DNA from: Nitrosopumilaceae archaeon | GTDB lineage: Archaea; Thermoproteota; Nitrososphaeria; Nitrososphaerales; Nitrosopumilaceae | Direction: 5' to 3' | DNA length: 64,000 nucleotides | NCBI GenBank assembly: GCA_965208905.1 | Contig: OZ242365.1 | Location: 576,001 to 640,000, forward strand | In this document: positions 18,609 through 51,354 of the stretch, piece by piece | Layout of the letters: each line of letters begins with the position of its first letter | Numbering within the stretch: the stretch's first letter is position 1 | Position numbers and translations under genes: made by a program | Notes under the pieces: model-generated | What the model saw: only the letters and a program-made list of their open reading frames with translations | Databases searched by the model: none | Told to the model about the DNA's origin: nothing

Positions 18609-20203
18609 GTCGTATTACCATACAATCCAAACAACTTTAAGTTTTGGTTAATTTTTTTATCCAGTTTCTTTGCCTCTGCTTGCTGCTGTATCAACTGCGC
18701 CGCTAATCTGGACATCTTTTGCTCGAACGGCTCGCCATCATCAGGCTGTGGCTCGGCTCCAACATATCGGCCCGGAGTAAGAATATAGTCGTGCTTGCGT
18801 ATTTCATCAAGTTTGGCACTCTTGCAGAATCCGGGCTTATCGGCGTATTTGTCTGTGTTTTGGTCACCACGCCAGGCGGCATACGTGCGGGCTATACGGT
18901 TTATGTCATCACCGGTCAGCTCGCGATGGGTTCGGTCCAACATCCGGCCCATACTGCGGGCATCAACAAACAGCACCTCGCCCCGCCGGCGATGCCTTCT
19001 TGTACGATCCCTAGACAAAAACCACAGGCAGGCGGGTATCTGGGTCGAATAGAAGAGCTGGCCAGGCAGTGCCACCATGCAGTCCACAAGGTCCGCTTCC
19101 ACCAAACTCCTGCGAATATCGCCCTCGCCGGACTGTTTGGATGACATTGAACCGTTGGCCAGTACAAACCCCGCCACACCGGAAGGTGCCAGATGGTGCA
19201 CCATGTGCTGCACCCAGGCAAAGTTGGCATTGCCCTTTGGCGGAGTTCCATAGACCCAGCGTCGGTCATTTTGTAGACGTTCGCCTCCCCACTCCGAGAC
19301 GTTAAAGGGCGGATTGGCCAAGATAAAGTCTGCCTTCAGGTCCAGGTGCTGGTCGTTGTGGAAACTGTCCCCGTGGGTTATCTGGCCCGCATCTATACCG
19401 CGTATGGCTAGGTTCATCTTGGCCAGTTGCCATGTGGTATAGTTTGATTCCTGACCATATATGGATATGTCCCCCACGGCTCGGCCCCCGTTACCGTTTC
19501 CGCTAGCGTGGGCGTGGATAAATTCGACTGACTGTACAAACATCCCTGCAGATCCGCAGCAGGGGTCGTAGACGCGCCCATTGTACGGTTGGAGCATCTC
19601 GACCAGCAACCTAACTACGCTCCGGGGCGTGTAGAACTCACCGCCTTTCTTGCCCTCGGCATTGGCAAACTGCGAGAGAAAGTATTCGTAGACACGGCCT
19701 AGCACGTCTTTGGATCTGGCCTCCTCATCACCCATACTTATGTTGCTGATCAGGTCAATTATCCTGCCCAGGCGCGTCTTGTCCAGGGACGGTCGGGCAT
19801 AGTTCTTTCGCAATACGTCCTTGATGGCCGGGTTCTCCCTTTCGATGGATGCCATGGCGCCATCTACAATCTGGCCGATTGTGGGTTGGCGAGCCTGGGC
19901 CTTGATATTTGACCAGCGGCCTTCAGGCGGCACCCAGAATATATTCTGGGCGCGGTACTCGTCGGGATCTTCAGGATCGGCATTCTGTTCCGTGTCCAGT
20001 CTGGCTTTGGCTTCCTCAAAGGCATCGGACACATATTTTAGAAAGATGAGGCCCAAGACGACATGCTTGTATTCGGCAGCATCCATGCTGCCCCTCAGCG
20101 TGTCGGCCATCTCCCACATCTCCGCCTCGATTACCGATGTGTTGTCGGCAGAAGATTTGGTTGCCTGCTTGTAACCAACTCGTTTATGCTCCGTTCTTGT
20201 CAT
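18605..20203 (-). CDS. hsdM: type I N6-adenine methyltransferase subunit M
   Basis: [24 protein letters not shown]. Confidence 0.97.
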
Positions 20204-36499: not shown

Positions 36500-36536
36500 C
36501 AGGGCCGAATTCTAGACCGGGCTATACTACAAGGGC
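36459..36536 (-). tRNA. tRNA-Asp(GTC), CCA encoded
   Basis: cloverleaf with GCCCTTG/CAAGGGC acceptor stem and anticodon loop CT GTC AC; one U-C mismatch in the T stem. Confidence 0.9.
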
Positions 36537-37017
36537 TTAACTGCATTTACAGAATCATAATTAAAAATCTTGCGAGTTGTATAGTGTTGTCCATGACTAT
36601 ACACACAATCATGCAGTGCTCTACCTGATTTTAGGAAGTATATACCAAAGTAGCATACATGACGCATGCATGTCCCCAGATGCTTCCTTATACTTGATAA
36701 CTCAGATGCTTGTCACTTGTGACACCACATGGCATCTGGAGACATATACGCCAATACTCAGCCGATCTGCAAAAGGCATAAAACAGAGAAGAGGTAAAAA
36801 TGCATAATGGCGCGACGGCGTAATAAACCAAAACAAGTCGAATACAAGCATAGCGCCGAGCATATAACAAAGAAGCCAAAGCCAAAAAGACATCAGGGCG
36901 CGTACTGGTCAGAGTCTGGATACGAACTTTGACTTAGTAGGTATACTCCAAGCATATGAAAAAAGCTCAGTGCCCTCACAGACACATGATCATAGTGTGG
37001 TTCTAGGATTATGTGCC

Positions 37018-38490
37018 CTATACGGCAGTCACTCTGGACAAAGACAAGTACGGTTCATACTGCAAGCACGGGGGTTCCCGCATCCACAATACATCACACG
37101 TCACTCCAGAGGACGACGGTGCATGATACATCTCGTTCCCCGGTCTGTGCTTGACGTTTCTCAGGGGAGCTAATGCGAGAACCCTCCACGTCCAGACACC
37201 CCTTGTACAATGGGTGTTGCCGGTATGGTCCGGCAAGTTTCGTAAGTTTAGTTGGCCATGCCTAACCCCCAGGCCGAGTTTCTTCAGCCCCGCATCCTCT
37301 ATGTTTGAGCCTACATTACAGTCGGCATGATACGTGTGGCCACATTTTTTACACAAGAACTTTCTACCATCCCGGTTATCCTTATGTGTATAACCGCACG
37401 AGTAGCACCGTTGGCTCGTATACGCTGCCGCAACCCAAATTATCTCGCCAGCCAACTTGTACGCCAACAGTAATGCCAACAGCCCCCAGCACTGCTCCAG
37501 GATGGCCTTATTGAGACCAGATTTCTGCGCAACGTTTTTGCCGGGTTTTTCTTTGGTACCTTTGGCAGATTTTGCCATGTTTTGTGTAGGAAGTTTCTCA
37601 AAGGCTGCATGTGTGGTGCTGTTCGATATAACGCGCGATATTTTATGCGCGGTGGTCTTTCGAATGTTTGCAGCTTTGCGTTTGTTCTTGGCTGCACGTT
37701 TGCTGGCTTTGGCCCACCGTCGAGAACCAGGTTTACGATTCGCATAGTCGGGTTTATGCCTGCGTGACGCTATCTTTTGTGCCTTAGAGGCTGTTTTTTC
37801 GGCGTTGTTTATGCGGCGTGCCACCTTTTCGGGTATTATTATTACACAGTCAGGTGTGGCCACATTACCAACATTCTGGTCTATACCAATAACAGTCGGT
37901 TCCGTCACGGTTGGCTTCTCATCGGGTATATCACAGGATATGGTAATCCTCCACCCGCCATCCGGTAGTTGAAACAGTTGGGCCGTCTTGTATCGGTAAT
38001 TCAAGACGGGAAACTCCCGCGACAGTTTAGCCTCGCCCATCTTGGCTATCTTGATTGTACGTGTATCGGTGAAGCGCGCTTGGCCGACGGTACCATCATG
38101 TGTTATCGTCAACGGGATGGAGATGTGACCTCCATATTTCTTAAAGTGCGGTTCACCAAACTCTGCCTTGGGTTTGATGTTGACGGCCTTCAGCTTCTCT
38201 GTTTCCACATATTGGTCATAATGCCTGCCCAAGTCATGTAATATTTGGCGCGTCACCCCGGATATGGATTGACGCATCCAACGCGGACCCGAATGGTTGC
38301 GCAAGTCCGTATACCACGCGTTTATCCTACCACGCGTAGTGTTGACCCTCCCAGCTCGACGGTACTCCTCCTTGAAGGTTTCCAATAGTTTGTTATGCAC
38401 GTACCTGTCCATGCCGGCCTGTCTGGCCAACATCTCCTTCTTGAACCCTTTACGGAATCCAACGCCGAATGTGTATGTGCGTAGTACCAT
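37018..38490 (-). CDS. tnpB: TnpB RNA-guided endonuclease
   Basis: RuvC D (GIDQN), E (FEKL) and D (HADCN); CYSC/CKKC zinc finger; ORF reads through the element end. Confidence 0.92.
37052..37250 (-). ncRNA. putative omegaRNA/reRNA scaffold
   Basis: overlaps the tnpB 3' end; stems ACACCC/GGGTGT and GACGT...ACGTC; boundaries approximate. Confidence 0.5.
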
Positions 38491-38511
38491 TAGCGTACAG
38501 TACGGTTTACA

Positions 38512-38522
38512 TGTTTAAAAAG
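38512..38522 (-). promoter_or_regulatory. TATA box of the tnpB promoter
   Basis: TTTTTAAA about 25-30 nt upstream of the ATG, inside the element. Confidence 0.5.
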
Positions 38523-38609
38523 ATAGTTGAGGTGTGATATATGGCACCCGTCCTTACGGGAGGAACCACAAGTACCAATAGATAAATTTGTCTATGTAGT
38601 AAATTATTT

Positions 38610-38694
38610 GCGGGGGTTGCCAAGCCTGGTCAAAGGCGCAGGGCTTAGGACCCTGTCTTTCAGGAGTTCGCGGGTTCGAATCCCGCCTCCCGCA
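38610..38694 (+). tRNA. tRNA-Leu(TAG)
   Basis: cloverleaf with long variable arm; CAGGG CT TAG GA CCCTG. Confidence 0.95.
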
Positions 38695-38730
38695 TAATCA
38701 CATATATAATTAATAATAAGTCAGCATCCA

Positions 38731-39585
38731 ATGATGGACATGAGTAAAGCAATGGTCGGAATTACTGTAGTTAGTAAAGACCGTAAAGGAATTGTTGCCA
38801 CCATCACCAACTTTGTCTTTACAAGGGGTGGCAACATAGAGAACATAAATCAGAATGTAATTCAGGGGCTCTTTGGCATGTATGTTGAAGCATCGTTCCA
38901 AGACTTGGATATAGACTCTTTTGATGCAGAGTTGCACCAGGTAGCCGTCGAAGAAGAGTTGGACGTGAACATATATCATACTGCCAGCACGCAAAAGAAT
39001 ATAGCCGTATTGGTAACAAAAGAGAGACACTGTCTAGATGCAATACTAGACGCCGTAGCCACTGATAGTTTACATGGCAAGATAGCCATAGTAGTAGGCA
39101 CCGAAGGCACCCTGCAGTCACACGCTGAAAAAGCAGGCATACCCTTTGTTGTCATTCCAGAGAGAAACCAAGAGAAGGCCGAGTCTCAAATACTGGCTCT
39201 ATGCAAGCAGTACAAGATAGACCTTATAGTGCTAGCCCGATACATGCGCATACTCACACCCAACTTTGTCTGGAGATACCCTCGACGTATAATCAATATA
39301 CACCCATCCTTGTTGCCTGCATTTCCTGGCGCATATGCATATCAGCAGGCCTTTGAAAGGGGTACCAAAATAGTAGGAGTTACTTCGCATTATGTTACGG
39401 AAAATCTGGATCAAGGGCCCATCATACTACAGGAATCTTTCCATGTGGATCCCGCCGACACACTAGACTCCATAAAAGCAAGGGGGCAAAGATTGGAGGC
39501 TCAAACACTAACAAACGCTGTAAAGCTACATTTGAACAATAGTCTGGAGGTCTATTGGAGAAAAGTTCACATCAAAGAGGAGTAA
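38731..39585 (+). CDS. purU: formyltetrahydrofolate deformylase
   Basis: N-terminal ACT domain, LARYMRIL, INIHPSLLPAFPG, LDQGPII. Confidence 0.92.
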   Translation: MMDMSKAMVGITVVSKDRKGIVATITNFVFTRGGNIENINQNVIQGLFGMYVEASFQDLDIDSFDAELHQVAVEEELDVNIYHTASTQKNIAVLVTKERHCLDAILDAVATDSLHGKIAIVVGTEGTLQSHAEKAGIPFVVIPERNQEKAESQILALCKQYKIDLIVLARYMRILTPNFVWRYPRRIINIHPSLLPAFPGAYAYQQAFERGTKIVGVTSHYVTENLDQGPIILQESFHVDPADTLDSIKARGQRLEAQTLTNAVKLHLNNSLEVYWRKVHIKEE

Positions 39586-50858: not shown

Positions 50859-51354
50859 GGTTCCTCCCGCAAAGTCGGGTGATTACACCCCCGCCATGCG
50901 GGATAGCCTGTCAGCCCAGTTGCTCCAGCAACCCTGTATGAGTGGTGTGGGATCGAGGATTACGTCCACACCACGACGGACTTCGCCCAGACTGGCCGAA
51001 ACCTGACGACCATATCGGGATACGGCACTTGTTCGCCGTATATTCTCCACTGCATTGACGTCGCGATCTACGCCAACCGTATGGCAGCGGGTGCAGTCTT
51101 TTTTATGATAAGTTCCAGTTAGTGGGGTTCTACATACAGCGCATAGCTTGGATGTGTTGTGTGGACGCATATGTAATGCCTCCACTCCCAAAAACCGGGA
51201 CTTTTCATAAATTAAATCCGATGCCTTTCGCATCATGGCAGAATGTAACCTGCGACGCATACTGCGTCCAAACTTCCCATTCTTCTGCCAATTGTATGAT
51301 ATGTGGGTTAAATCCTCCAACATAACCAAGCACCCGGACTGTGCGGGAGGAACT
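50859..51354 (-). mobile_element. 496-bp TIR element with an 8-bp TSD carrying the 3' half of a second tnpB
   Basis: CCCTCATG at 50851-50858 and 51355-51362; TIRs GGTTCCTCCCGCAAAGTCGGGTG and rc AGTTCCTCCCGCACAGTCCGGGTG; LEDL, TSKLCAVC, CTRC, DRDVNAVENI. Confidence 0.88.

Follow-up and report, generated by a model that had tools for sequence, protein, structure and literature searches.

Six branches of TnpB nucleases associated with DDE transposases, all of them with inverted terminal repeats, are described in passages of Altae-Tran et al. 2023 (PMC10691335), where the 3' ends of the tnpB genes are placed less than 250 bp from the transposon end, IS630 is named in the main text for one of the branches, and solo TnpBs whose ends almost equal those of elements encoding a transposase are interpreted as being mobilised in trans. 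The corresponding sections of a 2026 review (PMC13565253) restate both types and list ISL2, IS630 and IS1031 as partners. The same sections regard it as an open question how OMEGA nucleases serve transposons that make target-site duplications (TSDs) and are not cleanly excised, and suggest that such pairings are rare in prokaryotes, recognition of the target-adjacent motif (TAM) being inflexible. The locus described here lies in a 64,000-nt stretch (the window; positions 576,001 to 640,000 of contig OZ242365.1, assembly GCA_965208905.1) of the genome of a Nitrosopumilaceae archaeon and consists of a tnpB gene within a small element with terminal inverted repeats (TIRs). This element is a real, multi-copy, TIR-bearing and TSD-making carrier of an intact-looking tnpB, and very probably it is mobilised in trans by a DDE transposase whose own elements carry the same ends. 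An earlier interpretation made from the letters of the window alone (the sequence-only reading) had proposed a candidate new class of RNA-guided transposon, a claim that is not supported, since DDE-associated and solo TIR-bounded TnpBs are already part of the account in PMC10691335.

The tnpB element and its copies

The element spans positions 37052-38567 (1516 bp) and is bracketed by ACAAGTAC at 37044-37051 and 38568-38575. Its TIRs, GGTTCATACTGCAAGCACGGGGG and (reverse-complemented) GGTTCCTCCCGTAAGGACGGGTG, both begin with GGTTC and match at 17/23 positions. Borders, exact 8-bp TSD and TIR match had been given in the same form by the sequence-only reading, which had also called the element non-autonomous; indeed, tnpB is its sole long open reading frame (ORF) and no transposase is encoded inside.

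Comparison of the element with its own genome (G000; 2.2 Mb, 99.57 % complete) yielded 15 matches, eight of which are full-length (86-100 % identity) with borders corresponding exactly to 37052 and 38567. Four of these eight copies are flanked by perfect 8-bp TSDs, namely ACAAGTAC (window), GGAGACCT, GACTGCAA and GACATGTG; among the other four, two have a 7/8 TSD, one (c6) adjoins another element and one (c8) is without a duplication. A 7/8 duplication also flanks a derivative shortened to 355 bp by internal deletion. Elements of the window type (family A) recur in relatives: at many independent copies in six genomes, different 8-9-bp duplications were found, and 17-24 of 24 positions agree between the two inverted ends. 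The search for further TIR pairs and the tabulation of their TSDs, proposed together with the sequence-only reading, hence provided at least eight full-length copies with identical borders in the own genome as well as elements in relatives. Across the taxonomic family (301 genomes, 27 genera), family A was detected at E<=1e-40 in six genomes, all from one genus. A scan of genome contigs with alignment A2 (seven TnpB homologues, 62-81 % identity) returned the known congeners only (17 loci), and two scans of metagenome contigs (alignments A2 and A3) gave no match.

Three congeners (G005, G001 and G006) additionally harbour a family of miniature inverted-repeat transposable elements (MITEs) of 162-166 bp (L141-L145), the GGTTCC-type ends of which are as in the present element and are kept across the three species. 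An 8/8 duplication is present at one of the five copies; the MITEs are too decayed to inform on a flanking motif.

The 490-aa product of the window ORF scores above cut-off with Pfam Cas12f1-like_TNB (PF07282; 48.2 bits, cut-off 26.3) and OrfB_IS605 (PF01385; 36.4 bits, cut-off 30.5) as well as with NCBIfam guided_TnpB (147.1 bits, cut-off 100), while IS200_TnpB (105 bits) and IS607_TnpB (53 bits) remain sub-threshold. The nearest solved structures are of the TnpB type, i.e., 9j09 (5e-18) and ISDra2 TnpB (8h1j/8bf8; 1e-10), with which the catalytic triad D204/E298/D390 and the CCCC zinc finger (C362/C365/C380/C383) line up; triad and zinc-finger cysteines are invariant in alignment A2. With catalytic residues and zinc finger intact, the window TnpB looks active. 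The TATA-like box TTTTTAAA upstream of the gene has similar counterparts at the same place in relatives. The description of a full TnpB with D-E-D triad, zinc finger and TATA box by the sequence-only reading is thus borne out by residues, profile scores and TTTTTAAA. Its placement of tnpB inside the element applies to the conserved part of the gene; the ORF itself overruns the element end by 34 nt in the window copy, in which a 2-nt indel shifts the frame of the tail so that the ORF leaves the element. Among the seven other full-length copies, tnpB stops 41-42 nt inside the end in four (c4, c5, c6 and c8), at a conserved stop motif (TGACGTGTAA) that recurs in relatives across the alignment; it stops 32 nt inside the end in c7 and 5 nt inside in c2, and is truncated in c3. 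The reading frame of the C-terminal tail varies between copies, with ORFs of at least 464 aa in 6/8 members of family A.

A DDE transposase with the same ends

Elements coding for a DDE transposase share the end sequence GGTTCCTCC.GCAAG.ACGGGTG with the tnpB element (L020 and others). The representative L020 from the congener G009 is 1.45 kb long, terminates in GGTTCCTCCCGCAAGAACGGGTGA in inverted orientation and has CGCCATCG on either flank. Its 388-aa transposase is composed of a SWIM-like CxC...CxH finger, a zinc ribbon of the IS1/IS1595 type and a DDE core, the latter matching Pfam DDE_Tnp_IS240 (PF13610) with 30.4 bits (cut-off 27). The best NCBIfam match is the IS6 equivalog; because its score (73.8 bits) lies under the cut-off of 125, the predicted transposase is termed IS240/IS6-like and not filed as a member of IS6. 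The families considered in the sequence-only reading were IS1, ISH6 and IS1595; the domain scores favour an IS240/IS6-like assignment. Homologues in the protein database display the same Pfam domains (PF13610) and bear uninformative names. Members of the IS6 family have ends starting with GG and generate 8-bp duplications; classical members measure ~0.7-0.9 kb.

Perfect (8/8) duplications and GGTTC-starting ends were found in 12 copies of the DDE element. In G009, all nine scorable short copies have an 8/8 TSD, in addition to three copies with IS110-like inserts; at least eight copies in this genome retain open frames of 395-396 aa, which are 66-73 % identical to the core fragment of a broken gene in G000. 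The latter resides in a 1536-bp element with the same ends (G000 926302-927837), the transposase frame of which is broken three times. The autonomous DDE copy with matching ends that the sequence-only reading had called for is accordingly intact in congeners (L020 and others) and frameshifted in G000.

Three lines of evidence connect the two types of element. (i) At its 23-nt 5' terminus, the tnpB element is identical to the left end of the DDE element at G000 926302 (0 mismatches) and deviates from the G009 copies by 1-2 mismatches; the window copy (38545-38567) is one base off that left end and one base off the family consensus. (ii) Copy c6, an 8-bp spacer and the frameshifted DDE element adjoin each other at G000 924780-927837 (L016, L019), and the whole is flanked by one 8/8 TSD (TTAAACTC). 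Since this single perfect duplication encloses the entire arrangement, the composite has moved as a unit, and may be regarded as being in effect a tnpB-plus-transposase transposon. (iii) TIR variants change in parallel in tnpB and DDE elements, as in the pairs GGTTCTTGTGCAAACGCGGGTGTT / GGTTCTTGTGCAAATTCGGGGGTT of G006 and GGTTCTCTTGCAAGCCGTGTTGAT / GGTTCTCTTGCAAACTGTGTTGAT of G009. Moreover, the own genome yielded no match to Y1_Tnp (PF01797), with a control search being positive in 6/14 genomes, and none to the serine recombinase domain Resolvase (PF00239). On account of the shared ends, the composite, the parallel TIR variants and the lack of both Y1 and serine recombinases, mobilisation in trans is accepted as the best reading, which agrees with the earlier assignment of the locus to a non-autonomous, DDE-mobilised element with 8-bp TSDs. 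Given that the sole cognate transposase copy of G000 is frameshifted, the family-A copies in this genome may be stranded.

Thirteen further IS240-type ORFs of G000 (e.g., 18890-19306 and 1337897-1338319) are intact (356-501 aa) and share 66-82 % DNA identity in the coding part only; they may represent old or domesticated transposase genes. In G009, the transposase genes of four DDE elements (L077-L080) each contain one or two inserted sequences that code for a 364-376-aa protein, presumably IS110-like judging from its N-terminal sequence; this would suggest site-specific insertion into the DDE element.

A second TnpB-like family with ends of the same type

A genome-wide scan with the end motif uncovered a second family (family B) of ~13 copies, 1.6 kb in length and with near-perfect ends GGTTCCTCCCGCAAAGTCGGGTG. 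Nine full-length copies have a duplication of at least 7/8, eight of them 8/8, and a 585-bp derivative is likewise flanked by an 8/8 duplication. Most family-B ORFs are intact. The 520-aa protein is called TnpB-like because of its score with the Pfam TNB domain (28.3 bits, cut-off 26.3) and the motifs GVDIN, LEDL and CxxC...CxxC...DRDVN recognised by eye. A phmmer search with this protein found no match in the PDB, and hhalign compared the two families with 35 % probability, confined to the zinc-finger/RuvC-III stretch. The window contains a 3' fragment of a family-B element (Table 1), which sits ~230 nt upstream of a tRNA-Val gene.

A trinucleotide outside the upstream duplication

In the orientation of tnpB, the upstream TSD copy of the window element is directly preceded by TTG. 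For the analysis of this position across copies, elements were oriented by tnpB and insertions with at most two duplication mismatches were counted. Excluded on this basis were copies with unsupported duplication (c8, B2, B5, B10, L074, L053, L062, L064-L067 and L077), copies with one end captured (L031, L037-L039, L047 and L048) and L032, both ends of which lie in the analysed region with the TIR-pair finder giving no credible pair (11/24). The excluded c8, B2, B5, B10, L031 and L037 still carry the motif of their own family upstream.

In the family-A subgroup of G000, G005, G001 and G006 (n=16), TT occupies positions -3/-2 of all 16 upstream flanks, followed by G in nine (TTG) and by A in five (TTA); TTG/TTA is thus present in 14/16 upstream versus 0/16 on the other side (Fisher 5e-7). 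The subgroup of G009 and G002 (n=4), which has 9-bp duplications, displays TCA in three cases and TGT in one, and pooling of family A (n=20) gives T at -3 in 20/20 and TTG/TTA in 14/20, with both of these sets having been counted on the upstream side. In family B together with 33-45 %-identical relatives with other ends (n=18), position -1 is A without exception and position -2 is T in all but one insertion, resulting in WTA in 17/18 upstream versus 1/18 on the other side (Fisher 7e-8). For comparison, TTR and WTA occur in G000 with background frequencies of 3.3 % and 4.0 %, respectively. TTG occurs at 9/16 family-A sites and at 0/18 family-B sites (2e-4), though the ends in G000 are common to both families; within this genome, G at -1 was observed at 5/8 family-A and 0/10 family-B sites. 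The motif stays in a constant register with the duplication, whereas an AT-rich block farther out floats at a distance of 4-7 nt, and TCA or WTA is retained even in GC-rich flanks devoid of this block. TnpB is indicated as the origin of the preference by the third base, which differs by family, by the constant register and by the persistence at GC-rich sites. That the flanking trinucleotide serves as a TAM appears, on these sequence patterns, an evenly balanced proposition.

Two other readings of the site were rejected. A TAM inside the duplication, as in Fanzor, was discarded since no position is conserved there among the 16 and 18 insertions. TTG as a transcription initiator was dismissed, because the TATA block of the neighbouring gene is merely 4-7 nt off.

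The 3' region as candidate omegaRNA

Alignment A1, which comprises the terminal 290 nt of 23 elements (six genomes), reveals a strongly conserved core that extends to the shared stop motif and is followed by ~42 nt including the TIR, which vary by end variant. The RNAalifold prediction comprises five helices and 35 pairs. Compensatory changes support three of these pairs, one being AU->GC in 8-9 sequences. In total, 96.6 % of the cells are paired versus 32-52 % in slid controls, a support that is overstated, as this alignment had also served to derive the structure. An extra hairpin (GCCGG/CCGGC, GCCAG/CTGGC, GTCAG/CTGAC or CCGGG/CCCGG) was recognised by eye and is out of register in the alignment. 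An Rfam scan returned two tRNAs and a chance miRNA match, with no family fitting the 3' region.

Contigs assembled from public RNA libraries, compared like the DNA runs below over window positions 36500-39000, connect the flank with the outermost 21 nt at the tnpB-3' end (X1, 36923-37073; X2, 36878-37072), which is at best a hint of transcription reading out of the element. X1 and X2 lack RNA cover in 36500-36835 and in some parts of the element; these holes were not used as evidence.

A further contig of RNA run X2 fuses 37061-37166 to 38359-38445 with 30 unrelated letters in between, and a similar joint is found in DNA run X15; internally deleted derivatives hence exist elsewhere and may be transcribed.

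Occupied and element-free alleles

Contigs of DNA run X11 span both junctions and represent the occupied allele. In DNA run X15, which carries another organism label and represents a closely related strain, a contig of 19,947 nt fuses position 37040 to 38570, its flanks differing from the window at 3/971 positions. The resulting allele, GGACAAAG|TACCAAT, equals the expected empty site minus 5 nt, and the joint has a 3-nt microhomology (AAG). The element could have been lost from it by an almost precise deletion between AAG repeats, or the site could have been empty from the start and have undergone a separate 5-nt indel. A tnpB-free locus with both 8-mers had been named by the sequence-only reading as contradicting its claim; the X15 allele does not carry both. 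Loose ends belonging to other element copies in the DNA runs occur at 37052 (X11) and 37050 (X15).

On the tnpB strand of the X15 allele, the match to the predicted guide extends only 6 nt after TTG. If the TAM model were true, this allele would resist cleavage.

Table 1 Features of the tnpB locus and of a related fragment in the window
Feature	Position	Strand	Remarks
tnpB ORF, 490 aa	37018-38490	-	conserved TnpB part ~aa 1-431 (37198-38490)
TSD copy next to tnpB 3' end	37044-37051	.	ACAAGTAC, same as 38568-38575; other 8-mers at this place in other copies
TIR at tnpB 3' end	37052-37074	.	GGTTCATACTGCAAGCACGGGGG; homology of genome copies stops exactly at 37052
Conserved foldable 3' region, candidate omegaRNA scaffold	37052-37236	-	ends in TIR; overlaps ORF tail
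TATA-like box, candidate promoter element	38514-38521	-	TTTTTAAA; 24-31 nt upstream of tnpB ATG
TIR at tnpB 5' end	38545-38567	.	reverse complement GGTTCCTCCCGTAAGGACGGGTG; window sequence
TSD copy upstream of tnpB	38568-38575	.	ACAAGTAC, same as 37044-37051
Flanking TTG, candidate TAM	38576-38578	-	CAA on + strand; directly 5' of upstream duplication in tnpB orientation
Neighbouring TATA-like sequence and tRNA-Leu(TAG)	38582-38589 and 38609-38695	+	TATA-like ATAAATTT; transcribed away from element
Family-B element, 3' fragment	50859-51347 (G000 626859-627347)	-	same TIR type; C-terminal 154 aa of protein

Proposed mechanism and alternative explanations

Taken as a whole, a scheme combining a trans-mobilised tnpB element with a guide and a TAM is regarded as the probable explanation. 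The element would be a non-autonomous insertion sequence with imperfect 23-bp inverted ends, a tnpB gene preceded by a TATA-like box and a structured 3' region running into the end. It would be mobilised in trans by the ~388-aa IS240/IS6-like DDE transposase, which is encoded in its own 1.45-kb element with the same ends and makes 8-bp, sometimes 9-bp, TSDs. TnpB would bind an omegaRNA derived from the 3' region, with the guide being read out across the end into the flank, i.e., into the duplicated 8-mer and the DNA downstream of it; TTG/TTA located 5' of the upstream duplication would then act as TAM. The ribonucleoprotein would recognise the empty allele, which offers TAM, single 8-mer and flank, and would ignore the occupied allele, where the match breaks after 8 nt, as well as the 3' junction, which is preceded by ACC. 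Recognition of the empty allele would favour copying of the element back through recombination. Such homing or retention is a possible function of TnpB, held at somewhat less than an even chance.

Several observations weigh against this scheme, in part or as a whole. With respect to mobilisation, a DNA search of the own genome for an intact cognate transposase gave one broken copy and one fragment, and its 13 other IS240-type ORFs are surrounded by neither GGTTC-type ends nor duplications. Replicative movement is generally assumed for IS6-type elements; if so, there would be no need for the known function of TnpB in retaining an element that has been excised. As regards the guide, covariation in the 3' region is thin (3/35 pairs, with the structure coming from the same alignment), and the bridging RNA contigs are unstranded, have a depth of 2-4 and stem from metatranscriptomes possibly holding DNA. 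The element-free allele is 5 nt short of the ideal empty site. Concerning the motif, the split of family A into subgroups was made after the motifs were known, and the DDE-only elements have a bias of their own: among 12 copies from G009 and G004, oriented by the transposase, T is found nine times at -3 and eight times at -2, with TT in 7/12 versus 2/12 on the other side; pooled with five further copies, T amounts to 10/17 at either position of the transposase-proximal side, and no preference exists at -1. An AT-rich block at -13 to -6 is likewise common to the DDE-only elements and the closer family-A subgroup. Finally, of the eight family-A sites in G000, six are located upstream of a divergently oriented ORF or tRNA, at 14-38 nt from its start. 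From this location of the sites just upstream of divergent starts, the AT block is taken to be the TATA region of the divergent gene; for the window insertion, the adjoining TATA-like ATAAATTT and tRNA-Leu(TAG) identify it as the promoter region of the neighbour. It thus seems that insertions made by the transposition system have a set orientation and are placed directly upstream of promoters; target choice by the transposase may account for part of the TT bias.

If carried to its end, this line of thought makes the trinucleotide and the AT block together the oriented target choice of a transposase that inserts directly ahead of BRE/TATA promoter DNA, with TnpB travelling as a passenger the TAM and guide of which are unrelated to the site. 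The TT excess and AT block of the DDE-only copies, the divergent starts and the tRNA-Leu TATA region in the window are all accounted for in this way. It leaves unexplained, however, why the third base differs by TnpB family despite identical ends within one genome while DDE-only copies are indifferent at -1, why the motif is fixed to the duplication with the AT block 4-7 nt away, and why GC-rich sites without this block retain TCA or WTA; moreover, TT is present in just 1/5 of the additional DDE-only copies. We consider target choice alone unlikely, albeit the strongest of the alternatives. The scheme with a TnpB-specific TAM can be reconciled with it, if the TAM evolved to fit the sites preferred by the transposase, with the motif being sharpened afterwards through TnpB-dependent retention. 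IS605, where the TAM matches the target bias of the transposase, provides the template for such a model.

Alternatively, the elements could be stranded relics, in which TnpB has been retained because it serves the host or regulation and not the spread of the transposon, e.g., by RNA-guided binding at the own upstream end, where TAM and 8-nt duplicate form a partial match. Divergence of the copies by 6-14 % and the broken cognate transposase in G000 would agree with relics, and yet family-A ORFs of at least 464 aa (6/8) and mostly intact family-B ORFs with a retained role. However, the D-E-D triad is intact here, in contrast to the known nuclease-dead TnpB derivatives with a regulatory role; the presence/absence polymorphism in near-identical strains implies recent gain or loss, and congeners hold intact transposase copies. 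On balance, relics with a new role are improbable.

A tnpB-only element of the IS200/IS605 or IS607 type (IS1341-like) with coincidental ends and repeat, for which these families being the usual TnpB carriers and the sub-threshold IS200_TnpB and IS607_TnpB scores could be quoted, can practically be discounted in view of the differing 8-9-bp TSDs at many copies in six genomes, the inverted ends, the candidate TAM not abutting the element end and the own genome being free of Y1 and serine recombinases. In particular, the view of the TIRs as subterminal hairpins of IS605 type and of the repeat as a coincidence of TAM and right end was ruled out by the recurring borders and TSDs together with the absence of either recombinase.

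Going beyond the trans-mobilised element with guide and TAM, it is possible, though less likely than not, that two unrelated TnpB lineages have each been coupled to one DDE family by a new geometry, in which TAM, variable 8-9-bp TSD and element end follow each other and the 8-mer serves as guide seed. The nuclease would then recognise the empty allele of every insertion placed next to its TAM, and TnpB would either steer the site or orientation of insertion by the DDE transposase or decide by homing which insertions survive. If true, this arrangement would constitute a prokaryotic counterpart of Fanzor1 and another solution to the problem of the variable TSD.

Comparison with known systems

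The genus represents a compact natural case, comprising dozens of dated insertions, two TnpB families sharing ends, transposases in sister genomes and an empty allele at strain level. Should the trinucleotides be TAMs, a rule of a TAM outside and the duplication as guide seed would become testable at the bench, and a route would emerge by which TnpB hitch-hikes on DDE transposons, bearing on the origin of Fanzor. Should they not be TAMs, the element is another member of the already described DDE-associated TnpBs. A literature search revealed no TnpB linked to IS240/IS6, no thaumarchaeal TIR-bounded TnpB, no ends shared by two TnpB families and no TAM outside the TSD in the passages covered; the supplements of PMC10691335, which lie outside this search, may list the lineage. 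The partner transposase family, the second TnpB-like family on the same ends and the family-specific trinucleotide outside the TSD may be new.

With the IS200/IS605 elements that carry tnpB only (IS1341 group), the present element shares the single tnpB, a 3' end (putatively RNA-coding in the present case) overlapping the ORF tail and a motif located 5' on the tnpB-upstream side. In IS200/IS605, the TAM abuts the left end and mobilisation is by the Y1 transposase TnpA, whereas here the TSD separates the motif from the end and the genome lacks Y1. TIRs and TSDs are absent from IS200/IS605 according to sections of PMC13565253, in contrast to the TIRs and 8-bp TSD found here. IS607, moved by a serine recombinase and devoid of TIR and TSD, differs in the same respects, as TIRs and TSDs are present and PF00239 has no match in the genome.

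The partner transposase resembles IS6/IS240 in its DDE_Tnp_IS240 domain (above cut-off), the GG-starting ends and the 8-bp duplications. It departs from IS6 by the element length of 1.45 kb, the 388-aa protein with additional SWIM and zinc-ribbon domains and the score with the IS6 equivalog (73.8 versus cut-off 125).

Fanzor1 and Fanzor2* of eukaryotes, as portrayed in passages of Yoon et al. 2023 (PMC10711439), also consist of a TnpB-type nuclease alone in a non-autonomous element with TIRs and TSDs; there, the RNA spans the TIR, and transcripts reach beyond the element. The TSD of Fanzor has a fixed sequence and is part of both RNA scaffold and TAM (parts of PMC10711439 and PMC13565253), whereas the TSD is variable and the motif lies outside in the present case. 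The duplication would here form the first 8-9 nt of the guide target instead.

The closest relationship is to the DDE-associated and solo TnpBs in the passages of Altae-Tran et al. 2023, with which the element has in common the inverted repeats, the tnpB 3' end near the element end and ends matching those of a DDE element. An IS240/IS6-like partner, a Nitrosopumilaceae host, TSDs and a TAM-like motif outside the TSD, as described here, are not mentioned in these passages.

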